Source of the DNA: a virus
IMG/VR virus record: IMGVR_UViG_3300049435_000061
Span: 1 to 64,000 of that record
DNA length: 64,000 nucleotides
Reading direction: 5' to 3' (one strand)
This document shows positions 2,766 through 59,047 of the stretch, in pieces; the stretch's first letter is position 1; each line of letters begins with the position of its first letter. The notes under the pieces were generated by a model. It ran no database searches, had not been told where the DNA came from, and saw only the letters and a list, made by a program, of their open reading frames with translations. The translations under genes were made by a program, and so were the position numbers.

Positions 2766-3743
2766 ATGATCAGAAAAATGTCTGATAAGTCTTGTTATTT
2801 ACACCTGCGACTATTATCCTCAACACCTGTGAGCAGGGGTTACACCCTGCCTGGGGGCTGGGAAAAAGCTATCGGGGGATGGCTCGACTGGCTGCGCCTG
2901 CAGGGCCACCGAGACACCACGTTACGGACGCGGCGCGGACAGGTGCGTTCGCTGGCCCGCCAAAGCGGTGTTCGCCACCCCGCCGAAGTCGACGTCGCCT
3001 GCCTGGTGCGCCTGTGCAGTCGACCGGGCGTCAGTTCCGATCACCGGCACGGCCAGCGGGCGGCGCTGATCAGCTTCTACGACTGGTGTGTCGCCAACGC
3101 GGTCACCACCCACAACCCGGCTGCGGCGCTGCCCAAAGTGAAGCCGTCCAAACCCCGTCCCCGGCCCACACCCGACGAGGTGTGGAAACAGTTGGTGGCG
3201 TGCGCACCGCCGCGCGAGACGCTGATGGCCGTGCTGGCGTGCGAGGCCGGTTTGCGGCGTGCCGAGGTGGCCGCACTGCACTACGACGACCTGGTGCGCG
3301 ACCACACCGGGTGGCTGCTGATCATCAACGGTAAAGGCGGCAAACAGCGCGCCGTGCCGATCAACAACCGGCTGGCGCGGGTGCTGCGCACCCACTGTCG
3401 TGGCGGGTATGTGTTTCCCGGCAAAATCGACGGGCACCTGTCACCGGACGCGGTGGGGCGTGTCATATCACGGTTGATGCCGCCAGGGTGGACGATGCAC
3501 AAGTTGAGACACAGGTTCGCCACCAAAGGTTTCAACGGAACCCACAATCTGCTGGCCGTCAAAGAGGCGCTGGGGCATTCCAGTGTCGCGACCACGCAGC
3601 TGTACACGGCGATCAACCTCAGCGATGTTCGCTCGGTTTGTGACGCCGCAACCGAAGATTGGAGTGAATGTGACGATGGACCGGACCAAACTGCGGGGGC
3701 ACACAGAGTTCGAGCTACGACTGGCGTTACGCCAGGAACGTAA
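2766..3743 (+). CDS. int: tyrosine integrase, apparently lacking N-terminal arm-binding domain
   Basis: GLRRAE, GKGGK, HKLRH, LGH, TQLYT catalytic motifs; adjacent to attP; start uncertain. Confidence 0.92.
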   Translation: MIRKMSDKSCYLHLRLLSSTPVSRGYTLPGGWEKAIGGWLDWLRLQGHRDTTLRTRRGQVRSLARQSGVRHPAEVDVACLVRLCSRPGVSSDHRHGQRAALISFYDWCVANAVTTHNPAAALPKVKPSKPRPRPTPDEVWKQLVACAPPRETLMAVLACEAGLRRAEVAALHYDDLVRDHTGWLLIINGKGGKQRAVPINNRLARVLRTHCRGGYVFPGKIDGHLSPDAVGRVISRLMPPGWTMHKLRHRFATKGFNGTHNLLAVKEALGHSSVATTQLYTAINLSDVRSVCDAATEDWSECDDGPDQTAGAHRVRATTGVTPGT

Positions 3744-3858: not shown

Positions 3859-3920
3859 CCGACGAGGGGCGGGCCAGGAACTTTGCCCAGCGCCCGGCCC
3901 GCCCCAACCTTAAAACGGCA

Positions 3921-3980
3921 ACAAAAAACCCGCCGACCAGTGCACGATTGGAGTAGTGCACCGGCCAGCGGGTTTTGTTG
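3921..3980 (-). terminator. intrinsic terminator of the leftward early operon (possibly bidirectional)
   Basis: 17-bp stem 3929-3972, fully paired on minus strand with 3 G.U pairs, followed by U6. Confidence 0.8.
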
Positions 3981-4007
3981 TGTAGCAAGAATAGTCTCCT
4001 CGTTTTT

Positions 4008-4211
4008 TCACCCTTTCATTCGTTTGTGCACACCGATCAGCCGCGTGATGATTCGGCGCATCTCGTCTTCTATCGGTCCGTCGTCGGCGTAGCCTTCCAG
4101 GAAGTCGCGCACCAGCTTTGACGGCGTGGTGCCCTCCCGTTGGGCTTTCGACGCGGCTTTATGCCAGATGTCGTGGGGCACGCGGACATAGTGTTTTGGC
4201 GTTTCAGCCAC
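4008..4211 (-). CDS. ribbon-helix-helix DNA-binding protein
   Basis: HYVRVPHDIWHKAASKAQREGTTPSKLVRDFL. Confidence 0.7.
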   Translation of the reverse strand: MAETPKHYVRVPHDIWHKAASKAQREGTTPSKLVRDFLEGYADDGPIEDEMRRIITRLIGVHKRMKG

Positions 4212-4554
4212 CGTCGATCACCTCCTGCAAGACATCGAGATAGGGCACGTCGCTCAACTCTTCACCGTCAACCGTGTTGACGCCGACCGGTCCACAAAAG
4301 ATGTCACCAGGCAACAACTGTGCGCCGCCCAATGCGTACCACAGGCGTGTAGCCACATGGTTGGGTGGCAAGCCTTTGAACTTGCCCTCCTCGTCCATGC
4401 TGAATACGAATCGCCTGTCGTCTATCAACGTATACATGGCCTGCACATACCCGCCACCCAGCACCGCCTGGTTGAACGCCGGATATTCTATTGGCACGTC
4501 ACGGATTTCAAACGTACCGTCCGACTGGATGACCAGTGTCTTTGCCGTCTTCAT
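4204..4554 (-). CDS. DUF3846-like protein
   Basis: DEEGKFKGLPPNHVATRLW...GDIFCGPV; start-associated motif upstream. Confidence 0.65.
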   Translation of the reverse strand: MKTAKTLVIQSDGTFEIRDVPIEYPAFNQAVLGGGYVQAMYTLIDDRRFVFSMDEEGKFKGLPPNHVATRLWYALGGAQLLPGDIFCGPVGVNTVDGEELSDVPYLDVLQEVIDGG

Positions 4555-4585
4555 TGTTGTGTCTCCAATCTTGGTTGTTGTTTTT

Positions 4586-4653
4586 GGTCTGAACAGACCA
4601 GGATGCACACCCCAGGAGCAAAGCTCCTGTGATGTGCACCCCTACCTGTTCAG
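4586..4653 (-). repeat. intergenic hairpin element 1 (type A)
   Basis: CTGAACAG...CTGTTCAG long stem; upstream TGA inside CTGAAC; alternative stem GGTCT/AGACC. Confidence 0.9.
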
Positions 4654-5126
4654 GTCACAACGACCGTTGCTTGCGGTGGGTAGGGCCGCAGTGCCTTGGC
4701 GTGCGCAAACACCTGACGCGGGTTGAACATGGTGTTTCTCGCGTACATCGAATGTGGGTCACGCCACGGTCGACCGTTCACTTTGAACCATTCCCGGCCT
4801 TCATGCTCATCGAACCAAAGCGCCATGCCGTGGCAGAAGTCGTAGAAGTCTTCAACTGTTTCCACGAACGTCGGAATCGGTTGATGCATGTGCAATTCCG
4901 TGATCTGGTTGGGGTGGTAGGTGTTGGGCACGTTCAACAGGTAGTCGATGCACGCTTCGCGAACCCGAACGTTTTGCACGTTGAAACCGCAGTAGTAGCT
5001 CGGTGTGTGCACCGACATGGACAGGCCGGGTCGCCACGACACGACGGTCAGCAGCCCGTTGAAGTCTTCGACTGTCATGCCGTCGATGCTGGCTTGCAGG
5101 TCTGGTTGGTTTGATACCGTTTCCAT
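4650..5126 (-). CDS. hypothetical protein
   Basis: SAS-led ORF ending in element 1. Confidence 0.8.
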   Translation of the reverse strand: METVSNQPDLQASIDGMTVEDFNGLLTVVSWRPGLSMSVHTPSYYCGFNVQNVRVREACIDYLLNVPNTYHPNQITELHMHQPIPTFVETVEDFYDFCHGMALWFDEHEGREWFKVNGRPWRDPHSMYARNTMFNPRQVFAHAKALRPYPPQATVVVT

Positions 5127-5178
5127 TTCTCTGTCTCCAATCTTGTTTTACCGCTTCGCGATACGCCGCTAAGCGGCT

Positions 5179-5259
5179 GGTCTAAACAGACCGGGCACCA
5201 CAGTGGCCCAGGTGCGACACATGTCGCACCTGAAACACCGTGGCACCCTACCTGTTCAG
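5179..5259 (-). repeat. hairpin element 2 (type A)
   Basis: CTGAACAG/CTGTTTAG; TGA 5256-5258 in 5' arm. Confidence 0.9.
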
Positions 5260-5648
5260 GTCCTTTCTAGTATTCGTCGTTCCCGTTCCGACATGAGTCG
5301 CGCGTCCGGCACCCACAACCCCTGCTGCCCACGGCACTGGATCGGGCGATCCAGGGGTCGTGGATTGGACAGCAGCCAGTGATACTGCCCACGTGCAGCC
5401 CAGCGGCTTCGGCTGTTGTCGACCACGCCGACCAGGTCGACCACGCCGACAATCACGCCACCTGGCATACCGACCAGCAGGTCATAGCCTCGTTTTTCCA
5501 AGACTCGGCCACCCTCATAGTCGAAGGTTTTCCCGGCGTGAATCGCTAGCGGCCCACGGTATTCTGTGGTCCACGTGCGGTTTTCGACGTCCTTCCCGAA
5601 CGCGATGATGGCATGCGCCCATGGCTGTCTGACGGTGAGGGCATACAT
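5256..5648 (-). CDS. ASCH domain protein
   Basis: ALTVRQPWA...GKDVENRTW...YRGPLAIHAG. Confidence 0.85.
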   Translation of the reverse strand: MYALTVRQPWAHAIIAFGKDVENRTWTTEYRGPLAIHAGKTFDYEGGRVLEKRGYDLLVGMPGGVIVGVVDLVGVVDNSRSRWAARGQYHWLLSNPRPLDRPIQCRGQQGLWVPDARLMSERERRILERT

Positions 5649-5821
5649 TATGCGAACTCCCATCTGCCGCAGCGGTTGCCGTTGACGTCGAAGACACGTC
5701 CGACGCCACTGTCGTCAACGTTGATGTCGTCGGCGACTTTGTGCAGGATGCGTTGCAGCTCACCGATAGGATCATCGGTGAAAGCTGACCCGTGGTCGGT
5801 GTACACGGTGAGAGTGAACAT
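5648..5821 (-). CDS. hypothetical protein
   Basis: Coupled ORF MFTLTVYTD...DVNGNRCGRWEFA. Confidence 0.65.
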   Translation of the reverse strand: MFTLTVYTDHGSAFTDDPIGELQRILHKVADDINVDDSGVGRVFDVNGNRCGRWEFA

Positions 5822-6255
5822 CACACACCCACCAATACAACCTCGTGCCATTGCAGGTCGGCCCACTTGGTGTCCCAGTGCGCTGCCCAGCGCAGAATCC
5901 CTTGCGGATTCAGCACATAGACATATTCGGTATCCCAATACTCATGGGCGTCTTCAGGTGTGGCGTAGTGCTCATTGCCTTGCTCACCGATGTACCGAAC
6001 ACCGAACCCTGCCACTAGCTCAAAGCGGTCAGGGTCGGTGGGATACATCTCACCAGTGGGGTTGCCGTCGAACGATGACCACCCTGCCGGTGTATGTAAC
6101 AAGGTGCTCACTACGCGGTCGATACCATGGGTGGCAATCAACCGTTGCAGTGTTTGCACCTTGCCCCACTGACCATCTGGGTAGCCATCGCTGTGGACAT
6201 AGACCAGTCGGATGCCGGAATCGGTTTCTGCACCGATAAGGCTTCTGGTACTCAT
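5821..6255 (-). CDS. phage hypothetical protein (MSTRS...YVHSDGYP type)
   Basis: SAS-led ORF. Confidence 0.75.
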   Translation of the reverse strand: MSTRSLIGAETDSGIRLVYVHSDGYPDGQWGKVQTLQRLIATHGIDRVVSTLLHTPAGWSSFDGNPTGEMYPTDPDRFELVAGFGVRYIGEQGNEHYATPEDAHEYWDTEYVYVLNPQGILRWAAHWDTKWADLQWHEVVLVGV

Positions 6256-6320
6256 TGTTGTCTCCAATCTTGTTTCATTGGCGCAAGCACCAACTACCGG
6301 CTACGCCGGTCGGATGTTCA

Positions 6321-6385
6321 GGCTGAACAACCGTGGAAGCCAACACCGCTGCTAGGCAGCGGAATTGGCAACCATGACGGTTCAG
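6321..6385 (-). repeat. hairpin element 3 (divergent)
   Basis: CTGAAC/GTTCAG; TGA 6382-6384 in arm; alternative stem GGTT/AGCC. Confidence 0.85.
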
Positions 6386-6483
6386 TGCATTGTCATGCTG
6401 GTCTCAGCGATCAGGAACAGCACAACCACGTACAGAACAACGAGCAGAAACAGCTCGGCTACAACCAGTCCGGTGTAGCCCAC
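6382..6483 (-). CDS. 33-aa single-TM peptide
   Basis: MGYTGLVVAELFLLVVLYVVVLFLIAETSMTMH*; stop falls exactly in element 3. Confidence 0.55.
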   Translation of the reverse strand: MGYTGLVVAELFLLVVLYVVVLFLIAETSMTMH

Positions 6484-7187
6484 TGACGTGGGTCGTCGTC
6501 GCCGAATTTGACCGGCATCACCAGGCCTACGAAGTCGTCGCCGATGGTGACAGTCAACGGCTTCTGGCCATACCCGTATGCACTGTCGTGGGCATAGACG
6601 AAGATCCGGCTGGCCCGGTCGCCGGTGCCTTTCACCTTGCCGAACGATGCGAGATATTCGGCGGTGAAAGCCGTTGCGTGACGCGACTTGGCGAGCACGT
6701 CACGCATGTTTTGCGCGGTTTGTGCCGTCACCTTGGCCGTTGAATCCGGCGCTGGCAGCGGCGGCAACGACACCGACTTGGGGAACAGTCCACGGAACTT
6801 CGGGAAGTCGACGTCGGCGATCCTCGCCGCAGCCAAGCTGCCGTCGTTGAATGTGAACTGCACCGACTTGCCATCCGATGTGACATCGACGGCACGCCAG
6901 CCCTCTTCTGCACGCTTTGTCTTGGCGGATTGGATGAGCCGCTTGACGTCGTCCAGATAGAGTGACATTGACACCTCGTCGCCGTCGAGCACCTTGGCCC
7001 GTGAAACGCCCAACCGGAACCTGTCGGTAGCGATTGCGAGAACCTGGTCTTTGTCGAATTCAAGGCGCACCACGTTGATGCCGGGCAGTGTCACGTCCGT
7101 GGACGCAAACAGGCTCGCGTCGCTGAGGATTCGGTGCAGATCGACCGATTGAACCGTGCCCAACTTAAGGGTGGTTGCTGTACTCAT
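6459..7187 (-). CDS. DNA polymerase III beta-clamp-like protein (shorter than DnaN)
   Basis: FASTDVTLPGINVVRLE...AIATDRFRLG...DFPKFRGLFP...GLVMPVK; 242 aa. Confidence 0.8.
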   Translation of the reverse strand: MSTATTLKLGTVQSVDLHRILSDASLFASTDVTLPGINVVRLEFDKDQVLAIATDRFRLGVSRAKVLDGDEVSMSLYLDDVKRLIQSAKTKRAEEGWRAVDVTSDGKSVQFTFNDGSLAAARIADVDFPKFRGLFPKSVSLPPLPAPDSTAKVTAQTAQNMRDVLAKSRHATAFTAEYLASFGKVKGTGDRASRIFVYAHDSAYGYGQKPLTVTIGDDFVGLVMPVKFGDDDPRQWATPDWL

Positions 7188-7259
7188 TTTTGTGTCTCCA
7201 ATCTTGTTTGACCTGTTCAACACCGGCACTTTGCCGGTGTGACCGGTCGACAGACCGGT

Positions 7260-7319
7260 TGGTTCTGAACAGACCAGGCTACCCACAACTTGTGGTTGTG
7301 GGCACCCCTACCGGTTCAG
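7260..7319 (-). repeat. hairpin element 4 (type A)
   Basis: TGA 7316-7318 in arm. Confidence 0.9.
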
Positions 7320-7726
7320 TCGAGTGTGACGAAGCTTTGCCACGGCAATGGGTCAGCCCATTGGCGCTTGACGCTTTCGGCGTGTTCACGCGCCTCGGAT
7401 TCCGTTGCGAACCAGTAGGCCCGCAGGTCGTGCTGGTCGTCGCCGATCCAGTCGTGCTCGGGTTTGAAATTGTCGACCGGCACCCAACACTGTGGATCGC
7501 TGCTGCTGTCGACGTCGAACGGAACACACAACGTTTGACCGCCAAGCAGTTTGACGGTTTGGCCGGTGATGCGTGCCACGCCGACCTCGATGTCGACTAT
7601 CCGGTCAGGGTCGGGTTCATCGTCGCCCGCACATATCGGGAGAACGCTGACACCCCACCCTTGATGGAAGGTGAAACGCACCGACAGATCCAACCACCGT
7701 TCCGCCGCTTCATATGTGTCACTCAT
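7316..7726 (-). CDS. hypothetical protein
   Basis: SAS-led ORF. Confidence 0.75.
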   Translation of the reverse strand: MSDTYEAAERWLDLSVRFTFHQGWGVSVLPICAGDDEPDPDRIVDIEVGVARITGQTVKLLGGQTLCVPFDVDSSSDPQCWVPVDNFKPEHDWIGDDQHDLRAYWFATESEAREHAESVKRQWADPLPWQSFVTLD

Positions 7727-7747
7727 GTTTGTCTCCAATCCTGTTGT

Positions 7748-7805
7748 GGTCCTAAACAGACCAGGCAACCACCCGCTGCCCCGGGTGGCTCCCCTACCGG
7801 TTTAG
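7748..7805 (-). repeat. hairpin element 5 (type A)
   Basis: CTAAAC/GTTTAG compensatory change; TAA 7802-7804 in arm. Confidence 0.9.
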
Positions 7806-8008
7806 TCGCGGAGTCGTTCTATCTTGTCGTCGCATCGTTGGCAGATGGGTACCTGCCCCAACACGGGGTGGTCGCGCAACCCGTTGGCGGGGTTGGTGCA
7901 CTTGGCGAACCATTCGCACAGTGCGTACCCGTACCCATATCTCCGATGTTGTTCCAGCAGTGCATCGCCGGTTTGTTGCACCCGGTCGTCAATGTTGAGG
8001 CGGCTCAT
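7802..8008 (-). CDS. small Cys-rich protein
   Basis: CEWFAKC...ICQRC; coupled ORF. Confidence 0.7.
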   Translation of the reverse strand: MSRLNIDDRVQQTGDALLEQHRRYGYGYALCEWFAKCTNPANGLRDHPVLGQVPICQRCDDKIERLRD

Positions 8009-8511
8009 TTCGGTGCCACCTCACTGCACTGCCACACCCGCACGTTGACGTCGACATGCACGGCGTTGTGTGCCGTCCAGTGGTCGCGGTGGAAAAACCA
8101 GAACCGGGTGGGACGTGTCTCACCTGTGTCAGTCAACGTGTTGACTGGCACCGAACCGTACAGCCCACCGGAAAAGTTTCCGTTGCCACTGGATTGCAAG
8201 TGCCACGAGCCACCGTTGATCCGGCGTCCACGATCCGATGTGGCATCCGACGTTTGTACGCCGCCACTCGGTGGATGGGATTGTGCGTCGCCGAACCACA
8301 CGTAGCTGATTCGGCGCGTCACGCCATCGGCGAACTCGACCCAATCGCCTTCCAGTGGGAGCGGGTTGGCGAGACGTTTGGTTTGACGTTCATTAAGCAA
8401 CCCAATGTCTTTCGGGTCGGGTGTGAACACCGGGTGCTCACCGCTGAAATTCCAGCAGCGCCACACCTCACTGTCCGCCGAGACGATGCGCGGTACTTCT
8501 GTTGTGTTCAT
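8005..8511 (-). CDS. DUF4121-like protein
   Basis: GDWVEFADG...GNFSGGL...LTDTGETRPTRFWFFHRD; family recalled, not searched. Confidence 0.55.
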   Translation of the reverse strand: MNTTEVPRIVSADSEVWRCWNFSGEHPVFTPDPKDIGLLNERQTKRLANPLPLEGDWVEFADGVTRRISYVWFGDAQSHPPSGGVQTSDATSDRGRRINGGSWHLQSSGNGNFSGGLYGSVPVNTLTDTGETRPTRFWFFHRDHWTAHNAVHVDVNVRVWQCSEVAPK

Positions 8512-8531
8512 TGTGTCTCCAATCTTGTTGT

Positions 8532-8589
8532 GGTCTAAGCAGACCAGGCAACCACCCGCTTACAACGGGTGGCTCCCCTACCGGCTTAG
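8532..8589 (-). repeat. hairpin element 6 (type A)
   Basis: CTAAGC/GCTTAG compensatory change; TAA 8586-8588 in arm. Confidence 0.9.
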
Positions 8590-8834
8590 TCCCTTTCGGC
8601 GGTGATTGCTTTGGCCGGGACTATCACTGTTGTGGTGTTGTCGTCGTCGGCGAGTACGGCGAACGCGCGGTGAAATTCCCGCGTGGTGAGTCGCACCACA
8701 CGCCCGAATCGGCGTGGTTCGCCGTCGAACTGCCACGACACCCGGTCACCACGTTCGATACGGTCTGTTGCATCGAGTATGGTCTTGCTTGGCGGGCAGG
8801 CAATGTCCAGCGGCTTGTGCTGTTTGATACCCAT
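8586..8834 (-). CDS. hypothetical protein
   Basis: SAS-led ORF. Confidence 0.7.
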   Translation of the reverse strand: MGIKQHKPLDIACPPSKTILDATDRIERGDRVSWQFDGEPRRFGRVVRLTTREFHRAFAVLADDDNTTTVIVPAKAITAERD

Positions 8835-8856
8835 TTCTTGTCTCCAATCTTGTTAC

Positions 8857-8918
8857 GGTGTTTGAACACACCAGCCCCCACACAGGCACGGATGTCTGTG
8901 TGGGAGAGTCATGTTCAA
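8857..8918 (-). repeat. hairpin element 7 (type B)
   Basis: TTGAAC/GTTCAA; TGA 8915-8917; alternative stem GGTGT/ACACC. Confidence 0.9.
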
Positions 8919-9250
8919 CTGATGTAGGTTCCGACGACGACACTGTCATAGTCGTATCGGGTTTCGACACGGCCACGGTCGTCTTCGATAACAGGCCAAC
9001 GGAACACAACACCGGAATAGAACGAATCCGACTGGTACAAATCCCAGTCGGTGATCCCGATGTTGCGTGCCAGTCCATCGCAGTCGGTGGTGTCATACCA
9101 GCGATTGCGATACTGGACGAAACGCGGTGAGAATTCATCCTCGCCGGTCACGTAGTCGAAGTCTTTGCGAGCCTCAACCGGCAGCTGGTCAAACGCCACC
9201 AGCTCACGCCAGTGGTAGTTGGTCGTGATTTTCACGTGCTTGTCCATCAT
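8915..9250 (-). CDS. hypothetical protein
   Basis: ORF ending in element 7. Confidence 0.75.
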   Translation of the reverse strand: MMDKHVKITTNYHWRELVAFDQLPVEARKDFDYVTGEDEFSPRFVQYRNRWYDTTDCDGLARNIGITDWDLYQSDSFYSGVVFRWPVIEDDRGRVETRYDYDSVVVGTYIS

Positions 9251-9523
9251 TCACTTCCCAACGGGGTATTCTTCGACAAGTTTGCGCAGGCCGAACATGC
9301 TGTCAGACGGCAGTTCCCGCACATAATGTGTGAGCACGGATGCCTGACCGACATCCTGCCCGTCAATCAGCACCCGCGCCGTCTTGTGGTCGCGGGCACC
9401 GGCAGGCATTAGCTCTGCGCGACCTTCGCGGGCCGCTGTGAGCACCATGCGGCGCGCTGCCGAATAGTTGTGCACGGCCAGCGCGTCACGGACCTGCGCG
9501 ACGAGGGTGATTGTGTTACCCAT
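9251..9523 (-). CDS. hypothetical protein
   Basis: SAS-led ORF. Confidence 0.7.
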   Translation of the reverse strand: MGNTITLVAQVRDALAVHNYSAARRMVLTAAREGRAELMPAGARDHKTARVLIDGQDVGQASVLTHYVRELPSDSMFGLRKLVEEYPVGK

Positions 9524-9566
9524 TGTTGTCTCCAATCTTGTTGGCGCGCAGCGCGTTGCTACGCAA

Positions 9567-9629
9567 TGGTGCTGAACACACCAGCAGCTCACACGGACGC
9601 GAACGCCCGTGTGGCTGAGTCATGTTCAG
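9567..9629 (-). repeat. hairpin element 8 (type B)
   Basis: TGA 9626-9628 in arm; alternative stem TGGTG/CACCA. Confidence 0.9.
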
Positions 9630-10549
9630 TTGTAGTCGGGTTCCAGCTGGTCGTAGTGCGACTTGCGTCCCGCCACCAGAATTTTGTCGGTGACACTGAA
9701 GATGGATCGCACCACGTTGTCGTTGACGGCCAAGTTGCCGTCATCGTCCAGGTAGTCGACGGTACTGCCTTTCAACCACCCTTGGATGTACGCACGGCTG
9801 CTGGCGGCGTCGAACTGTTCGACGTCCAGTTCTGTGCAGACCAGCAGTGCGACGGCCTCGGCTTGGAACTCCCGAATGTCGCGCGGGTGCTCTTTTTTGG
9901 TGCCGTGGTCTTCGGTGTGGCCCAACAGAATGTGCGCCCACTCATGGATCATTGTTTTGAACGGCGACACAGCTACCGGGTTGAGCGCAAACTTGCGGTC
10001 AACACTGTAGCCTTGCACGTTGCCGTCGTGATGGCTGAACCGGGTTTCGGTCACATCCAACACGTCGGCGGCCTGCTTGCGATCCCAGCTGGGCAACGTC
10101 GGCATCGGCAGATCGGGTCCTTCCGTTTGGAACAGCTGGAACACTGAGGCTTTCGGGTAGAACCCGACAACCTTCATCTCTGCTTTACCGTTGGCTTTGA
10201 GGATCGTGTTGCCGTCGTGGTCACGTAGCGGCGCGAACTGCGGGTGGTTCACCCACAGCGCGGAGCCGGGTCCGCTGATCACTTTGCGGTCCAACGACTG
10301 CCATTTGCGGAACGTTGCTATCGGCTCAAACTGCCCGGTCTGCATAAGCACCAGGAGAATGTTGAGCATCGAGTAGCGGTGAAACCGGTTGTAGCAGTTC
10401 GACAACCTTCCCGGCGCTGTCAGCGCGAACTGAAGAACCGCGACCAGATCAATCTTGCCGTTGTCGTGCAACGGCAGGTCAGACTTGGTGACGTCGCGGC
10501 GACCTTTGCTCGGCTTGGACGCCTTGCGGGTTTGGGTTGCTGTTGTCAT
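9626..10549 (-). CDS. ArdC-like ssDNA-binding / zincin anti-restriction protein
   Basis: FHRYSMLNILLV...ATFRKWQSLDRKV N-domain; HEWAH and EFQAEAVA zincin motifs. Confidence 0.75.
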   Translation of the reverse strand: MTTATQTRKASKPSKGRRDVTKSDLPLHDNGKIDLVAVLQFALTAPGRLSNCYNRFHRYSMLNILLVLMQTGQFEPIATFRKWQSLDRKVISGPGSALWVNHPQFAPLRDHDGNTILKANGKAEMKVVGFYPKASVFQLFQTEGPDLPMPTLPSWDRKQAADVLDVTETRFSHHDGNVQGYSVDRKFALNPVAVSPFKTMIHEWAHILLGHTEDHGTKKEHPRDIREFQAEAVALLVCTELDVEQFDAASSRAYIQGWLKGSTVDYLDDDGNLAVNDNVVRSIFSVTDKILVAGRKSHYDQLEPDYN

Positions 10550-10571
10550 TTTGAGTCTCCAATCTTGTTTT

Positions 10572-10634
10572 TGGTGCTGAACACACCAGCAGCACACACA
10601 GGCACGGATGTCTGTGTGGCTGAGTCATGTTCAG
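10572..10634 (-). repeat. hairpin element 9 (type B)
   Basis: TAA 10635-10637 abuts CTGAAC; upper stem nearly identical to element 7. Confidence 0.9.
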
Positions 10635-10967
10635 TTAGTCGCCAATGGCGTAGCCGTCGATGCCGCCGCAGCGACTACATTCGACGGCGTCATGCCAGGC
10701 GTGTTGCCGATATACGGCGTCGTCTTCACTGTGGCAGTAACGGCAGCGCACTTTCGGCGAAACATAGTGCGCCGCTTTAGGTATTGTCGGGTCAGCGTGA
10801 AGCCATTCACCCATGCCGTATGATCCACCGTTCGGATCGTAAACGAGCTGTTCATCACATGTCTTGCAGTGGTGAACGTCTGGCAGTATTTCAACGTCAA
10901 TGGTGGGAAGTGTGCAGTAGTTGCCTCGTTTGGCATCCGCAAACATCTCTAACGTTGTGCTCATCAT
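10635..10967 (-). CDS. Cys-rich hypothetical protein
   Basis: Three CxxC pairs; SAS-led. Confidence 0.75.
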   Translation of the reverse strand: MMSTTLEMFADAKRGNYCTLPTIDVEILPDVHHCKTCDEQLVYDPNGGSYGMGEWLHADPTIPKAAHYVSPKVRCRYCHSEDDAVYRQHAWHDAVECSRCGGIDGYAIGD

Positions 10968-10983
10968 TGTCTCCAATCTTGGT

Positions 10984-11082
10984 TGGGCTGAGATACCCAG
11001 TGGCGCAGTCAGACGCAACTGTAAGCGTCGCCAGGGGCGGCGAGATGCGCTGTTGGCGTCTGACTGGCCAAGTGTTTCTCAG
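10984..11082 (-). repeat. hairpin element 10 (divergent, long)
   Basis: CTGAGA/TCTCAG base, CAGTCAGACGC/GCGTCTGACTG stem; alternative stem TGGGT/GCCCA; TGA 11084-11086 adjacent. Confidence 0.75.
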
Positions 11083-11083
11083 A

Positions 11084-11233
11084 TCAGTGCGTATGTTCGT
11101 ACAAGGCAATCATTGTCGCTACTGTCACAACGACAACGAGTAGGCACAGCATGATGTGAACAACGAGCAGCGCGGCGGATGTCGCGCCAATCATCATCAC
11201 GGCGATGCGCAGGGCATCGAGTGCGGCGTTCAC
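11084..11233 (-). CDS. 49-aa membrane peptide
   Basis: Manual ORF, GTGA-coupled, hydrophobic. Confidence 0.55.
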   Translation of the reverse strand: MNAALDALRIAVMMIGATSAALLVVHIMLCLLVVVVTVATMIALYEHTH

Positions 11234-11457
11234 AGTGCGGCCCACCAGAAGCGGCGGACGGCGCGGTCAAACTCGTGTTGTGCGTGCATACGGTCAATCA
11301 CATTCTCACGCTGCGGCTTTTGTGTCGGCACGAAACGTATTGTGGTGACCGGTGCGACCGGGTGGCTTGATTGCTTGTCGAAGGCGAGTCGCACGATATG
11401 GAACTCGGGCGGACGCGGCGGCACGACGTTCAGCTTTGGGCTTCCAGGTACATGCAT
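11230..11457 (-). CDS. hypothetical protein, first gene of early operon
   Basis: SAS variant upstream. Confidence 0.6.
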   Translation of the reverse strand: MHVPGSPKLNVVPPRPPEFHIVRLAFDKQSSHPVAPVTTIRFVPTQKPQRENVIDRMHAQHEFDRAVRRFWWAAL

Positions 11458-11477
11458 TGCGATTCTCCAATCTTGTT

Positions 11478-11955
11478 GCTAGTGAAAAGCGCACTAGCAC
11501 GCGGTCGAGGACATCTATAAATCCCCGTGAAACCCAACCAGTCGGTGAGACTGGTTGGGAATCATGGAAATTCAAGATTAGAGGAGACTATTCTCAACTA
11601 TTACAGCTCACTACAATTTCACGGTGCGGGTCGCGGGACACAAGTCTCAGATAAATGTTCTCGCAGAAGCTTCATCAGCATGACACGCACTTAAGTCGGA
11701 TACTCTCGTGGGCTGCATTCGTCTCTATAGGGCATATGTTCATTGCGCGTAGACGGTTTCGGTCACTCTTGAGTGGTCGCTGGTCGTCTCGGTCGTTGGG
11801 CGCGGCTTCGGGCTTTGCACTGATCAACGGTGGTCGTAGCGCGTCTCATATGTCTGTGTCTCTCGGGCTGGTTCACGGAGTGGGTTCAGGCGCGGAAGCG
11901 GCTGCTGGTCAAACGGTGTCCCTGGGACTTGTTTTGATCGGTATGTACTTGTACA
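11478..11955 (-). ncRNA. candidate structured 5' leader or sRNA
   Basis: No credible ORF; several hairpins; anti-SAS segment at 11573-11588; five GAGAC copies. Confidence 0.45.
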
Positions 11956-11959
11956 TCCG

Positions 11960-11989
11960 ATCATAGTAAGACGGGTGTACGGAAGTCAA
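11960..11989 (-). promoter_or_regulatory. SigA-like promoter for the early operon
   Basis: TTGACT-N18-TATGAT. Confidence 0.7.
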
Positions 11990-12203
11990 GTAAAACAAGC
12001 AGTTAGCCAGGAGTCACAGTAAACTCACATACGTGCAGCTCAGAGCACTGCCGACCATGGTTGATCTTGTTTGCTTAGTTGCCAGAAATGTGGCGAATGT
12101 GGACGGTGTTAAACCGGTCAACACATGTGGTGAAAGTGCAGGATCAGAATGCACAAAACGTGATCTTTCCACTGGGACAACACATCTCGCCCAGGTGCGA
12201 CTA

Positions 12204-12233
12204 TTGTCGCAGCTCACAGCGTCGGCGTAGCAT
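12204..12233 (+). promoter_or_regulatory. promoter for a probably leaderless lipoprotein mRNA
   Basis: TTGTCG-N18-TAGCAT ending 7 nt before ATG12240. Confidence 0.45.
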
Positions 12234-12239
12234 GTCGAC

Positions 12240-12689
12240 ATGGGTGAGCACAACACAGCATTCCCGACGCCCACAGCGACGCTGGGACACGACCAACATC
12301 CCCGACGTGCAATCACACGGTCGGCCACAGCAGCGGCAGCAGGGGCGCTGTCAGCGCTTGTTTTGTCCGCGTGCACCGCGACCGGCACAGGCGACGTCGG
12401 ACACCACGTGCCACCGATGCGCTCGGACGGCACCTTCTGGTTCATCGACTCAACAGAAGCGGGCACATGGGAAACAGCCGGGTCGGCGCGGGTCAACGGC
12501 AACGACTGCTCGTGGAACCTGTTTCTCAACCCGCCCGGCGAGATGGAGCAGAGCTTCAAAGACACCGACTGGGCCGAGTATCAGATCAGCCGTGGCGATG
12601 TGGCGGTCGGACAGCCCGCCCGTGTGACGCTGGCTGACGGGCAGTTTTTTACTTCCAACGGCTGCGCCGACTGGCAGCGCGTCGACTAG
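12240..12689 (+). CDS. lipoprotein
   Basis: Signal peptide with lipobox LSAC. Confidence 0.75.
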   Translation: MGEHNTAFPTPTATLGHDQHPRRAITRSATAAAAGALSALVLSACTATGTGDVGHHVPPMRSDGTFWFIDSTEAGTWETAGSARVNGNDCSWNLFLNPPGEMEQSFKDTDWAEYQISRGDVAVGQPARVTLADGQFFTSNGCADWQRVD

Positions 12690-31645: not shown

Positions 31646-34600
31646 CGACCACCGCCCGCACCGTATGCACGTATCTGCCGGTCGATGTCACGCGCGATCT
31701 GCTGACTGTCGGACGGGCTGGTGACATGCATCTCGCCGATCAGCGGTGCCTGACCGGGCTGGGATGCCGGTCCCCCAGGGCCGGGCTGCCCGCCCTGGCC
31801 CACGTGGGTCTCCTGCTGTTGGATCGGTGCCTGCGAGCCAGCGGTGTTCGGGCCTGCCGCCCGCACCTGCGATATGCCTTGCAAACCTCTGCCCAACCAG
31901 CTGGCCCCAGGATCGCCGAGAGGTGAACCGTTGGGCAGAAACGTTTCCATCAACCCTTGCCCGCCAATGGCCATCAGCTGGCCACCAAACTTGGCGGTCC
32001 GTGTGGCTAGCTGAGCCATAACCCCGCCACCGGGGAACATGCCCGCCGCCGCACCGATCACACCGCCACCGCCGCCACCGCTCTGCTGACCGGTGCCGGG
32101 CAGACCTTGACCGGGGGCACGACCGGTAGGCGCTGCCGAATCCGGCATGGGCACACCACCGCCTGGTGGTGGTGCGCCGCCCTGCTGCTGTTGCTGATGT
32201 TGGCGGGCGATGTCGATACCCATTTGGGCGAACGAAGCACCCAGACCAACCCAGCCGCCCTGCTGCTGCATTCCGCCGAGCATTGCGCCAGCCATCTGAC
32301 TGCCGGGGTCGTTGGGGTCGAGCGGGTTTCCCACGCCGACCGGCCCACCAAACTGGTAGTGCCCGTAGTTGTTTTTTCCGAGAATTGTGTCCCAGTCGGG
32401 CCCCATGAAAGTGTGTGGCAGGCCAGGCGACAGTGTGTGCCCGCCAGGGAATTGCATCTTTGTGTGGGGACCACCGAACCACCCACCGGTTCCGGTGTGC
32501 CAACCGCCGCCCTCACCAGGCGTGCCTTCAGGCTTCCATTTGCCTTTGCCTTTGTCACCGCTACCGGCTATAGCAGCAAGAGACCAGTCGGCAGGACCGC
32601 CAGCGTCGCGGTGCAATGCGCTTCGCAAGGCGTAAACAGCTGAGTGCCCGCCTAATGCGTCCACATCTTCGACGGTGAGCACATGTTCGCCACGCGTCAA
32701 AAGTGAAGGGACATCATCTTTCATGCCAGCGCCGCCGCGTGCTGGCCCACCAGTCTCATACCCCGGCATAAACCAGTAGTGCTCAGGGAACTGCTTGCCC
32801 ATTGCGCCGGGGCCACTGTCATAGGACACACCACCGCTTGAACCGCCCGACTCAATGTTGACGCCGTTGGGCAGCGTGGCTGCCATGTGACCGCTTTGAC
32901 CGGCCAACGGAAGAACGCCGATGTTCAAAGCGCCTGGCATGTAACCTTTATGGAAGCCGAGGGCTTCAAAGTTTGCCGTCGTTGTGAAACTAACGTTGTG
33001 GCCAACCATTGCGCTGTAAACATCCGAAACGTAACCGGAACAATCGGTTCGTGCCGCCGCACCACCGAGACCCACGCCGGGGACCGGGCTATTACTGTAT
33101 GGAAGCCCGTTCAACGCTTGGGCTTTCGCTATAGCAGCCATGGCTGCCGGTGAAGGCACGTTCTGCAAACCAACACCGGAGGCACCGCCGCCGATGTTGG
33201 GACCGAGCGGCGCATAACCCATTGGACCGGCATTGCCGCCGCGTGGAACGTTGGGGCCACGTACGCCCGCAGCGCCACCGCCGATGCCCAATGCATTGGG
33301 ACCGCCACCCGGCCCTGTGGGGATGCCACCACCACCATTGCCGGTCATGACACCCAAAGGGTTTGGACCAGCAGGTGCCTGATCGGTTGGTATCACGTTG
33401 CCGAAAGGATCCAACGTGGCCGGTCCGCTTGGACCTTCCGGTGGTCTAATGCCCTGGAAGTCTTTTATCAGGTCGTTGAATTCACGGAACGGTCGGATCA
33501 GGTATTGGTCGATCATGTTGCTGATCGCTTTGAAGGTGATGTCAGCTGCCGGTTGCAGTTCGGTAGAAATCTCGTTTTTCAGCTTTTGGAAATCCTCATG
33601 CCACGTGTGTGTTCGTTCCCTGTCCTTTTCGATTGAGGCACCAGTGTTTTTGACCGACGTGTCAAGAGCGTCGGCTTCCAGCTTGTTCCGATGGATCGCG
33701 TCGGCAATCTGGGTCCAGCTTCTACCGAAAGCCGACCTAGCCAGATCGTTGGCTGCCAACTCCAACGTCTTGTTGTTGGTGTTTTCGGCCTCGTTGTACA
33801 TGTTGTGCAGCTGGGTGATGATGTCACCGAACCGCTGGTTAACATCTTTGCCGCCTTCACCTTTCAGAAATTTGTCGAGCAGACTGCCTTTCGGCCCTTC
33901 CTCTTTCGACAGGTTAGATATCGCAACCCGCAACCCTTTGATGGCGGCGTCGCCGTCGATGCCCGCCTTTCGCATTGTCGTAAGAAAGTTGGCAGCCTCA
34001 CCGATGTCCATGCCCAGACCACGGAACTGTGGCCCTGCGGTGGCGATACTGGCCAACAAATCGTTCACCGACTTGCCGCTCTGCTTGTGCATGTCGTAGA
34101 ACTGATCCAAGGTCTTGCTTGTGTCGGTCACCTCAATACCGAACCCGCGCATCGTCTTTACCAGGTCGGGAATGTTCAGCTTCTCACCGGTCAACTCGTT
34201 GAGGTCGGAGATTTGATGGGTCAACTGTTCCAGTGGTTGCCCGGTGAGACCGAACGCGCGGTGCAGCCGCGTCGCAACATCGGCAATGTCTTCGATGGGT
34301 GCAGCAGTGTCTTGGGCTGTCGATTTAATATCCTCGATCAAACCTTTGACTTGGGTGTCGGTGTCGGTGGTGTTGGTGATGATACTTTTGGTGATGTTGT
34401 GCCACTCTTCACCCACCTTGTACAGCTCAGTGATGACACCGGTTGCGGCAAGGCCGATTCCACCAACCGCAAGTGCTGCCGCCCCGGCGTTGGACGTTAT
34501 GCCTTTGACAACAGTTGAAAACGCATTGCCCATCGGACCGAACATTGACGAAACGTCAGAGACGGCAGTGTTGAGTCTGTTCCGCAAACCCTGGTGAAAC

Positions 34601-50072: not shown

Positions 50073-50334
50073 TGTTGCCTTCGGCTTTCTCGGTGGCGAT
50101 AGCGCTCTGAGCTGCACCTATGTGCTGGAAATAGACGGTCCACCATGAGATACCCATGATGATCCACACCGAATTGCGCAGGCCGGTAAGCATCACCACC
50201 AACGACAGCGACAGTGACAGCCAGAACAGGCATCGGTGGATGATGACGGCGCGTTTGCCGATGTGCAGCCAGTTGACCGGGTCGACCTTGTTGAAGCCGT
50301 TGACGACGACGCGCACCAGACCGGGGTGGATCAT
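50056..50334 (-). CDS. membrane protein
   Basis: Two hydrophobic segments. Confidence 0.5.
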   Translation of the reverse strand: MIHPGLVRVVVNGFNKVDPVNWLHIGKRAVIIHRCLFWLSLSLSLVVMLTGLRNSVWIIMGISWWTVYFQHIGAAQSAIATEKAEGNNESHK

Positions 50335-50728: not shown

Positions 50729-50916
50729 TGGAACTCCTATCTTGTTGGTAGGCAAAGGGTTTGGCGGGCTTGCTAGCCACCAAAGCTGTTGTGCCACTCA
50801 ATATTTCGACAATTCTGAGACGGCATATGCCGGGACGCGGTGCGTTGACCGCCGGACGGCGGTTTCGCGCCTGCACCCCTCCCCCCATACTCGTTGCGGC
50901 GCAACAGGTTTGGCGG

Positions 50917-57364: not shown

Positions 57365-59047
57365 TCATTCGACCGCTACCCGAATCCAGCGGTTGCCTTC
57401 ACGTTTGACACGCCCGGTTCCTTCCAGCTTGTCGAGCGCCGCCGCCACATAGGGCCGGTCCCGGCCTTTGGCTCTGCGCGTCAAATCACCCTGTGTCATC
57501 GACCCTCCGTTCTCGTGCATTTTCTTTTCCGCCCACAAAGCAATCCGGCTCAACAATTTGTTGCGTTGATAGGCACGTTCTTCGTCGGCGGCATTGAAAG
57601 TCACACCCTGTAATCGGCCTTTATCTATTGCCTGGCTTTCTTGTGCCAACATCAGTTCCGACTTCACCCATGCCCGTGTGTGATCACTCACCCGCGAGGC
57701 AATACCGGACAGCCGCCAATCCTCCAACGTCATTTCATGCCGCCCATCGAGCACCGCTAAGGCGTAGGCGAATTTCTCCCGAATAAACAATGCGTGACCG
57801 TCGATGTCGTCGGCCTCGCCACGAACAATCCGAACCCGTTCATCGACTATCAGCTCGGTGGCCTCATACGGAATTTTCAGCTCGGTCGGAAACCGCCAAA
57901 CATTCGGTGAGGGCAGTTCGAGCGGCGCACCCATTGTCGGTCTTTCAGCGGTGATGCGGGAATCGCTGGCCGGAAACCACATGAACCGCTGCAATGTACC
58001 GCCGTAAATGTCATCCATCAGCGCGCCCGCTTTCGCTGGCTGGACACTCACCACCAACGTCATTCGGTAGGTGTGCTTGGCCAAATGTAGGCTGCTGGCT
58101 GTGCGGTAGGAGAACCCCAACGTGCCACCCGAGAAAGCACTACGCAGAATAGACGGCAGTGTGGCACCTGCGCGTTGGGACAGTGTTGCCATCGTGTCTA
58201 TCTCGTCGGCGACAAACATCACCGACTCGTGCAGCCCTGGCGGCTCCCCGGTTTCTTTGTTGGCCGGTTTCACATAGGCGTCGATCACACCTTCACCGGA
58301 CCCTAGATTGCGGGTCAACACATTCCGGTTGACCAGGTGATCGGCAACCGCCATCACAGAGTCTTTCCCGCCGCCTGATTTGGCCGCTATCGCCACAAAC
58401 CAGTTGAGCGACCCTTTCCCACCAATAATCGGCGGCAGTGTGACGTGCGGGTTAACCAATGCCAAAGCGCGTGCGGCACAATTGCCTAGCACCGCCCATG
58501 GTGAACACATTTGCGCCAGCGCCGACAGGTAGATGTTTTGCAACGATTCCCGCGACGTCCAAAACCCGCGTTCCAAAGACAAAACATCTTTCAGCTCAAC
58601 CGTTTCGACCGACGTGTCATCGAGCAGGATTGTGCGGCCCGCTTTGGTTCCCACATTGGACAGGTCGCGTGGATTGTCGAAGCCTTTCCGGCGTGCATTG
58701 CGCAGGGTGTCCTCAACCGATTTTTCGCCGTCATCCTGTTCCAACCGGTTGTCCCGGCAGGCGTCGCGCAAAGCGTTGTAGACGGTGGTTTCATCGAGTG
58801 CACCGGCAGCCACAATCTCGTACAGGTTGGCGGCAGCCGGGAACAGGGTTTTCTGCCGCTGCCCTTCCGGCGCGGCGCGGACTTTGGCTGTCTCCTCGTC
58901 AAAAGCCTTCCCGGCCCAAGACACCACCACCGCCGATTTCGGGTCACCACGGCGCGGCTGGGCGGCTGCAATCGCCTTTTGGGCGGCGTTGGCCCGGTCC
59001 ACATAGGGTTCGTCTTCCCACGGTGCACGGTTGGGCTTATCGGCCAT
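57365..59047 (-). CDS. primase-associated P-loop helicase-like replication protein
   Basis: AKSGGGKD, GSGEG, MFVADE, QRF; follows prim-pol. Confidence 0.75.
   Translation of the reverse strand: MADKPNRAPWEDEPYVDRANAAQKAIAAAQPRRGDPKSAVVVSWAGKAFDEETAKVRAAPEGQRQKTLFPAAANLYEIVAAGALDETTVYNALRDACRDNRLEQDDGEKSVEDTLRNARRKGFDNPRDLSNVGTKAGRTILLDDTSVETVELKDVLSLERGFWTSRESLQNIYLSALAQMCSPWAVLGNCAARALALVNPHVTLPPIIGGKGSLNWFVAIAAKSGGGKDSVMAVADHLVNRNVLTRNLGSGEGVIDAYVKPANKETGEPPGLHESVMFVADEIDTMATLSQRAGATLPSILRSAFSGGTLGFSYRTASSLHLAKHTYRMTLVVSVQPAKAGALMDDIYGGTLQRFMWFPASDSRITAERPTMGAPLELPSPNVWRFPTELKIPYEATELIVDERVRIVRGEADDIDGHALFIREKFAYALAVLDGRHEMTLEDWRLSGIASRVSDHTRAWVKSELMLAQESQAIDKGRLQGVTFNAADEERAYQRNKLLSRIALWAEKKMHENGGSMTQGDLTRRAKGRDRPYVAAALDKLEGTGRVKREGNRWIRVAVE

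Follow-up and report, generated by a model that had tools for sequence, protein, structure and literature searches.

The early operon of an actinobacteriophage known from metagenomic sequence opens with a non-coding leader, a short arm of which is complementary to the ribosome-binding motif of the first early gene. The phage is IMG/VR virus record IMGVR_UViG_3300049435_000061 (74,529 bases), and the stretch analyzed here, called the window, covers its first 64 kb (positions 1 to 64,000). The operon runs leftward on the minus strand, from 11457 down to about 4008, and carries many copies of a start-associated sequence (SAS), CAAGATTGGAGAC, that contains a Shine-Dalgarno (SD) sequence; the complementary arm of the leader is referred to as the anti-SAS. 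The feature itself is genuine, does not code for protein, and is conserved in its core. A translational gate acting in cis on the first early gene is the best explanation that we can offer, with a probability of about 0.5, and all its functional steps should be read as predictions from two metagenomic sequences.

Between 4561 and 11475, the minus strand has 11 SAS copies at no more than one mismatch (about 1.2 chance matches would be expected at up to two mismatches), and an ATG follows every one of them after 3 to 5 nt. Two extra copies lie outside the operon: one is found at 74168, and the other, at 50744, is a variant. The first copy of the operon deviates from the others at its last base, reading GGAGAA (11463) versus the consensus GGAGAC; the corresponding copy of the relative described below reads GGAGAT (L182 6603).

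Pairing and masking of the first SAS

In the minimum free energy (MFE) fold of the whole 499-nt leader, an 11-nt gate arm, CUCUAAUCUUG (11583-11573), pairs with CAAGAUUGGAG of the first SAS (11475-11465), 97 nt downstream, forming 11 unbroken pairs with one G.U and no bulge. The arm is part of the anti-SAS GUCUCCUCUAAUCUUG, which an initial annotation, made from the letters alone, had reported at 11588-11573 and which is indeed found there. That annotation had also drawn a 13-bp bulged helix and argued that the anti-SAS fits the downstream SAS copies better than the adjacent variant. The bulged register exists, but ViennaRNA picks the continuous 11-bp register instead; binding is somewhat stronger for the downstream copies (-16.4 to -20.3 kcal/mol versus -15.7 kcal/mol for the adjacent one), but the 11-bp register suits the adjacent variant equally. 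The 11-bp hairpin that it had described was recovered (P1 in Table 1). The two 8-mers of its proposed closing stem are present, but a fold using them reaches -59.6 kcal/mol, compared with -71.8 kcal/mol for the fold that pairs the SAS. The gate helix closes a multiloop holding the hairpins P1, P2, and P3, and its pair probability is 0.6-0.99 in local folding windows. A contiguous 11-bp helix with the SAS occurred in 0.10-0.17% of 3000 dinucleotide-shuffled leaders, and with -15.6 kcal/mol the anti-SAS ranks second among all SAS-binding sites in the operon-strand RNA of the genome. The leader has the traits of a cis anti-SD leader, namely an upstream segment that is complementary to its own SD sequence and is predicted to be paired, as in the rpoS leader, RNA thermometers, and the expression platforms of riboswitches.

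The first SAS is selectively masked in both phages. When every copy was folded in an identical segment, from -110 to +22, the mean unpaired probability of the first SAS was 0.01 in our phage, versus 0.39-0.79 in the other 12 copies, and 0.14 in the relative, versus 0.42-0.72 in the other 13 copies. Once the folded segment excluded the anti-SAS, these values rose to 0.57 and 0.41, respectively, inside the range of the other copies. Were the copies exchangeable, the first one would rank lowest in both phages with a probability of about 1 in 180. As a control, the same scoring was applied to the mycobacteriophages Adephagia and Pixie, in which the SD sequences of the SAS are mostly open and the first copy is unmasked. 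An extension of the masking to Cluster K was therefore rejected, the first SAS being unmasked there and Pixie being devoid of the anti-SAS core.

The relative came from a 16-nt SAS probe of IMG/VR, which returned a single contig, 3300017649_000007 (G001), with three matches. This contig is 41.5 kb long, about half complete, and ends before the 3′ untranslated region (UTR) of its operon. It carries 14 exact SAS copies and 2 one-mismatch core matches, and of these two the match at 33814 is not followed by a start codon. All of them share the same strand and continue up to the contig end. The first operon genes of the two phages are unrelated, and of 13 proteins compared, 3 have homologs in G001: an ArdC-like protein (66% identity), another protein (47%), and the divergent secreted protein (30%). 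The layout is syntenic, since our divergent lipoprotein gene has its counterpart (30% identity) in the divergent secreted-protein gene of G001, which is followed by a non-coding region of 520 nt (782 nt here) and the first SAS gene. The proximal ~330 nt of our leader (11790-11458) are homologous to the leader of G001, with high-identity islands. The best conserved of them, GCUGUA(A/G)UAGUUGAGAAU, abuts the anti-SAS, and identity is 84% over 37 nt including the anti-SAS (E 2.7e-5). In RNAalifold, the GUUG..GA of this island is paired in both phages, its partners being the spacer and the start codon's AU.

The initial annotation had named conservation in related phages as a check on the anti-SAS, and G001, the sole relative found, keeps it at the homologous place as UUUCCAAUCUU, from which its first SAS is 86 nt downstream. 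In an independent fold, this segment pairs with AAGAUUGGAGA of the first SAS at a probability of ~0.9, both in a 311-nt segment and in the whole intergenic region, and the shuffle test for the contiguous helix gave a P of 0.0017. Within the 11-bp helix, each phage shows one deviation from the perfect complement; both are C-to-U changes, by which a G.U pair is retained. The other helices were compared from independent folds, as a MAFFT-based RNAalifold run misaligned the hairpins of the two leaders. P1 is a 10-bp stem in G001, with the same CCAAC/GUUGG base and UU/UU internal loop, while its closing pair, distal pairs, and extension have changed and are still paired (UGA/UCA versus GGG/CCC). 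An 8-bp hairpin of unrelated sequence occupies the position of P3, and P2 has no counterpart at its place in G001, where a 5-bp hairpin precedes P1. Changes in the gate helix are thus two one-sided G.U changes, and two-sided changes are confined to the inner hairpins, as judged from one relative. This pattern of retained pairing is what selection on the RNA fold would predict, from a sample of two sequences.

The leader and its surroundings

The only promoter-like match between 10900 and 13100 is the sigma-70-like TTGACT-N18-TATGAT from which the initial annotation had started the leader, and it is present on the minus strand at 11989-11960. The predicted leader has an MFE of -143 kcal/mol (z -2.9). 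All minus-strand open reading frames (ORFs) within it have 50 amino acids (aa) or fewer. A 103-aa ORF on the plus strand (11655-11966) obtained a codon-usage score of -0.06, in the spurious range (real genes scored 0.02-0.29 in this model, trained on 29 confident genes), and had no match in PHROG, in Pfam, or in phages by tblastn. The earlier view that no credible ORF exists here was borne out on both strands of the leader by the codon model and the family searches. An ORF shared by the two leaders was excluded because the alignment shows single-base indels and a weak similarity that hops among three frames. No conserved upstream ORF was found in the two leaders, where short GTG ORFs end within the island in differing frames; coupling to such an ORF was rejected, as these GTG ORFs are not conserved between the two phages. 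Searches of Rfam gave only noise up to E 5 for the leader, nothing at the gathering score for the window, and nothing for the leader of the relative, and no tandem repeats or iterons were found. Two other candidates were dropped: an alternative promoter inside the conserved island, which has no conserved -10, and a terminator-like hairpin at 11503-11489, which is weak and has no counterpart in the relative.

Some repeats surround the promoter. A 21-nt near-repeat (20/21) is found just upstream of it, at 12026-12046 on the plus strand, and at 50104-50124 on the minus strand, the latter inside a membrane-protein coding region; this near-repeat may be an operator or a chance match. GCAGCTCA(G/C)AGC recurs at 12209, and GCAGCTCAG recurs in the intergenic region of the relative. 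G001 lacks a -35/-10 consensus promoter and has an extended -10, TGATATTCT, at L182 6255-6263. Its leader may start near this element, about 20 nt before the homology begins, which would give a length of ~340 nt.

The large terminase of our phage shares no more than 67% identity with its counterparts in Mycobacterium abscessus prophages and ~60% with those in Gordonia phages. These identities, together with the empty nucleotide searches of cultured phages, point to an actinobacteriophage without a close cultured relative: among cultured phages, none matched the genome at the nucleotide level and none carried the motif CAAGATTGGAGAC. The first operon gene has no homolog among 5.8 billion proteins. 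The last gene of the SAS operon (4008-4211, minus strand) encodes a 67-aa Arc-like ribbon-helix-helix protein (phrog_6506) that could be a regulator of the operon. This gene has no SAS, and its GTG start overlaps the stop of the preceding gene. On the plus strand, a SAS-like ribosome-binding site (RBS), AAGATTGGAG (3654-3664), lies 11 nt before the ATG of a small coiled-coil ORF that heads toward the bidirectional terminator and overlaps the end of a 325-aa ORF (2766-3743).

Intergenic hairpin cassettes are common to the two phages at 80-90% identity, and a probe made from them retrieved the same relative only. The shared SAS and hairpin junctions extend over L182 6591-13508 and positions 4204-11477 of the window, at the same 80-90% identity, and may double as recombination points for the swapping of gene cassettes. 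The non-coding junctions and the leader persist while the intervening genes are exchanged. Other routes to relatives gave little. No IMG/VR locus was found through the lipoprotein or the ArdC-like protein, and loci encoding homologs of the second gene have no such SAS upstream of that gene and come from phages without this SAS. A 14-mer SAS probe gave only chance matches among the matches listed, as did a probe made from the leader island in genome and viral contig collections.

Table 1. Features of the leader, the first gene, and the operon end (positions in the window)
Feature	Position	Strand	Remarks
Promoter-like TTGACT-N18-TATGAT	11960-11989	-	10/12 consensus matches; predicted transcription start ~11953
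Predicted untranslated leader, ~496 nt	11458-11953	-	No coding-like frame on either strand
Five GAGAC copies	11644-11862	-	5′ ends at 11862, 11847, 11790, 11725, and 11648
Conserved islands AGAGACGAAUGCAG and GAGAGUAUC	11699-11726	-	11726-11713 and 11707-11699; once per phage, at matching places
Closing stem of the initial annotation, CCGUGAAA/UUUCACGG	11524-11625	-	Arms 11625-11618/11531-11524
Best-conserved island GCUGUAAUAGUUGAGAAU	11590-11607	-	17/18 identical in G001
Arm AGAAUAGUCUCCUC	11581-11594	-	Overlaps the gate arm by 3 nt; 14/14 complementary to 4001-3988
Anti-SAS GUCUCCUCUAAUCUUG	11573-11588	-	Includes the 11-nt gate arm, 11583-11573
Hairpin P1	11528-11564	-	11-bp stem 11559-11549/11543-11533, UU/UU internal loop, 3-bp extension
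Hairpin P2, CGGGGAU/GUCCUCG	11506-11527	-	Predicted fold
Hairpin P3, 8 bp	11477-11499	-	Ends 1 nt before the SAS
First SAS CAAGAUUGGAGAA	11475-11463	-	Followed by a spacer and the ATG at 11457-11455
First operon gene, 75 aa, orphan	11230-11457	-	ATG-initiated
SAS mimic GAGGAGACUAUUCU, SD-like	3988-4001	-	Operon 3′ UTR, 13 nt before the 25-bp terminator
Operon terminator	3919-3980	-	25-bp stem and U-run, z -8.1; 10-nt loop UACUCCAAUC at 3955-3946
Divergent lipoprotein gene	12240-12689	+	Bounds the 782-nt intergenic region

A putative cis gate and its alternatives

If the promoter fires and the leader is transcribed as predicted, the leader would be a structured 5′ UTR whose arm at 11583-11573 pairs in cis with the first SAS at 11475-11465. 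The gate helix would bury the SD sequence of the first early gene, leaving the other ten SAS copies of the operon open, and the masking would lower translation of this gene and delay it until the helix opens. The other operon genes might depend on the gate as well, via translational coupling, Rho-dependent polarity, or mRNA stability. A partner in cis is favored over a trans-acting RNA because the pairing probabilities are 0.36-0.99 here and ~0.9 in G001, because only the first SAS is masked, and because there is no conserved terminator.

A candidate for the opener is found at the other end of the operon, whose 3′ UTR contains a 14-nt SAS mimic. This mimic is the sole other match of at least 11 nt in the genome to the arm at 11594-11581 (E 0.008), and cofolding the leader arm with it gains 14 kcal/mol and frees the first SAS. 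As DNA, the 14-mer forms an inverted repeat that flanks the whole early operon, with sharp edges and dissimilar flanks. The loop of the operon terminator (3955-3946) carries an 8-nt anti-SAS. Beyond the window, a second terminator of a SAS-bearing minus-strand transcript (72935-72990) has a 13-nt anti-SAS in its loop (72966-72956), which binds the SAS more strongly (-18.8 kcal/mol) than any other site on the operon-strand RNA of the genome. Non-coding anti-SAS segments make up 3 of the 7 strongest SAS binders, with the leader ranking second and the two terminator loops first and seventh. Such pieces might constitute a self-contained RNA circuit, in which the leader locks the first SAS and thereby access to the operon, the mimic unlocks it once full-length transcripts exist, and the terminator loops damp the open SAS copies; anti-SAS segments would then be the missing partners of SAS in general. 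In this circuit, the mimic, standing before a strong terminator, would be placed like the seed of a small RNA derived from a 3′ UTR, and the reverse SAS that Adephagia displays in a loop would be a further example. We consider the whole circuit unlikely. Were the link between the 5′ and 3′ UTRs true, the operon would be an unusual one that licenses its own translation.

Several points weigh against a cis gate. The promoter, the 5′ end, and the transcribed strand are predictions only, and the predicted promoter has no conserved counterpart in G001, where the promoter stretch does not align. The one sequencing run listed for this sequence is a DNA run, of the soil metagenome from which the contig probably derives. 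The gate helix has a probability of 0.36, not 1, in the full-length ensemble. The shuffled controls that the initial annotation had advised gave a divided answer: the contiguous helix is rare, but the energy of the best duplex is unremarkable, being ordinary among shuffles for the leader versus the 24-nt start region (P 0.18-0.24, with a wider range of 0.18-0.47). Because this duplex-energy test is not significant, the case rests on the contiguous helix, the conservation, and the selective masking. The conservation itself comes from one relative only, the SAS of which is identical to ours. Finally, the downstream copies are bound in trans as well as or better than the first one, which, together with the two terminator-loop copies of the anti-SAS, suggests a wider role in trans.

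Such a role was one of two proposals of the initial annotation, which had described the leader as an RNA occluding all the RBSs in trans. The leader, or a piece processed from it, would pair with many or all SAS copies and shut down early translation jointly, with the two terminator loops adding to the effect. Besides the energies of the downstream copies and the three non-coding segments among the seven strongest binders, this is in agreement with a second partial anti-SAS of G001, UCUCCAAU, which directly follows the first and is left unpaired in the predicted fold, and with the single reverse SAS of Adephagia, displayed in the 10-nt loop of a ~19-bp hairpin. But one leader anti-SAS would face at least 11 targets, the predicted folds of both phages already engage it with the first SAS, and the downstream copies are predicted to be open. 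Moreover, neither a conserved terminator nor a recognizable processing signal for a discrete RNA was found, and no Rfam family, C4 included, matched. The better downstream binding stands, and the action in trans seems fairly unlikely; it would be compatible with a cis gate, and the c4 RNA discussed below also sits in the leader of the operon that it represses. Rather less probable is that the inverted SAS has no role in RNA and is a site, for example an operator, at which a protein binds double-stranded DNA, or else a remnant that recombination left at the conserved cassette junctions. The operon is mosaic, with junctions 80-90% identical while most genes differ, and recombination could scatter copies of the junctions; it is closed by an Arc-like ribbon-helix-helix gene, and the 14-mer at its ends is an inverted repeat in DNA. 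However, selection at the RNA level, not at the DNA level, predicts both the C-to-U changes that preserve pairing through G.U and the compensatory changes of P1 and P3; a similar distance (97 versus 86 nt) and the same fold are kept despite differing intervening sequence, and the sharp edges of the 14-mer are unlike a decaying duplication.

The other proposal was a CsrB-like sponge, in which GAGAC repeats would sequester a protein with affinity for the SAS 3′ end. All five GAGAC copies were found where they had been reported, and the cluster is real: five in 496 nt is the maximum over both strands of the 74.5-kb genome (no more than three elsewhere), with a P of 0.015 against local dinucleotide shuffles. 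GAGACG-N5/6-CGACCAC occurs twice, 57 nt apart (11773-11847, minus strand), with a weaker third copy at 11725; three copies fit GAGACG-N5/6-nGnCCAC. A sponge of the CsrB/RsmZ type would be expected to present the motif of its protein many times in hairpin loops and to keep these copies in relatives. Here, the copies share neither a flank nor a loop or stem setting, their flanks are unlike the SAS, and the whole 520-nt intergenic region of G001 has one GAGAC. The conserved copy is that at 11725, inside the island AGAGACGAAnGCAG, and the other two alignable copies are GAGCC and GAGGC in G001; the surroundings of the 11790 copy are partly conserved there (17 nt, 82%). No candidate RNA-binding protein was identified for a sponge. 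Since one of five copies is conserved, the sponge is unsupported and we regard it as highly improbable. A small protein encoded in the leader fares little better and is very unlikely. The candidates are the 103-aa plus-strand ORF, which is membrane-like and has hydrophobic stretches, and a short ORF crossing the island on the opposite strand, whose peptide ILNYYS is shared with G001. Two opposite-strand frames match G001 weakly by tblastx (E 0.001-0.05, in a tiny search space), and the sole substitution in the island is synonymous in both of them. Against this, the codon-usage scores are in the spurious range, family and phage searches gave no match, and no start codon or SD sequence is conserved; the region of the 103-aa ORF is mostly unalignable to G001, and its alignable part has indels, frame jumps, and stop codons.

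The cis gate on the first early gene accordingly remains our preferred reading. A conserved antisense partner that masks only the SAS copy opening the operon speaks for SAS systems working through RNA-RNA contacts rather than through proteins alone, and a gate in cis would make SAS systems approachable by reporter fusions and compensatory mutants.

Relation to known SAS systems and leaders

SAS motifs were described in 2011 in Cluster K mycobacteriophages, and their function is still called unknown (PMC3203893, PMC7302621, PMC11373665, PMC12699233). SAS and extended SAS (ESAS) are also known from Cluster EF Microbacterium phages (PMC3203893, PMC7302621, PMC11373665). The leftward operon described here is a SAS system of this kind with an unrelated motif. 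In the terms of the Cluster K definition (Pope 2011), its motif is an asymmetric, SD-containing sequence of ~13 nt present in more copies than expected by chance, and these copies stand a few nucleotides before start codons (ATG in each case), in one orientation, at non-structural genes separated by long intergenic gaps. Ours resembles those of Clusters K and EF in being a private motif of ~13 nt with an SD sequence, 3 to 5 nt before the ATG of many non-structural genes, and in having one-directional copies that follow long intergenic hairpin elements. It does not belong to the same motif or lineage, as those phages use GGGATAGGAGCCC or GGGAAAGGACCCC and ours uses CAAGATTGGAGAC. The first early-operon SAS of Adephagia and Pixie also deviates at its last base (GCCA versus GCCC).

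No antisense partner is described in these SAS papers (PMC3203893, PMC7302621, PMC11373665, PMC12699233). K1 phages have one reverse SAS copy away from gene starts (PMC3203893). In Adephagia (K1), this copy is in the gap between genes 92 and 93, at 58661-58714, and the hairpin displaying it has a z of -4.1; late transcription is reported to start in the same gap (PMC11373665). No reverse SAS copy was found in Pixie (K3). The two reverse copies differ in their setting, since ours is part of the operon leader, where it masks the first SAS, whereas that of Adephagia is displayed by a hairpin, and the first SAS there is open.

Among leaders of other systems, a parallel in arrangement is found in phages P1 and P7, where the c4 antisense RNA of immI (Rfam RF01695) is encoded in the leader, upstream of icd-ant, and targets the RBS region of the next gene by base pairing. 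It blocks the translation of this gene and, by polarity, of the genes behind it, and once cut out it acts in trans via two short blocks. Our antisense element likewise sits in the leader of the same operon and faces the RBS of the first gene, and by analogy with c4-icd-ant of P1 immI and with Rho-dependent polarity, a block of the first gene could silence the operon. In contrast to the discrete trans-acting c4 RNA with its two blocks, ours is a single 11-bp helix without signs of processing, and the C4 models (RF01695, and RF03163 for c4-a1b1) found no match up to E 5 in our leader or in that of G001. The rpoS mRNA of Escherichia coli has a long 5′ UTR, an arm of which sequesters the RBS, and the small RNAs DsrA, RprA, and ArcZ pair with this inhibitory arm and open it. 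Ours also hides the RBS by an upstream arm, and the SAS mimic of the 3′ UTR could act as the opener by analogy; it differs in being a phage operon with its putative opener on the same mRNA. In the leader of lambda N, a structure sensitive to RNase III limits the translation of N, and in icaR of Staphylococcus aureus, an anti-SD in the 3′ UTR pairs with the SD sequence of the same mRNA. The former resembles our case in placing a leader structure over the first gene of an early operon, and the latter in SD/anti-SD pairing between both UTRs of one mRNA. Ours differs from both, as it has no nut site or N homolog and its helices of 11 to 14 bp are short for RNase III. The element thus unites a SAS system with a cis anti-SD leader, and it does not form a new category.

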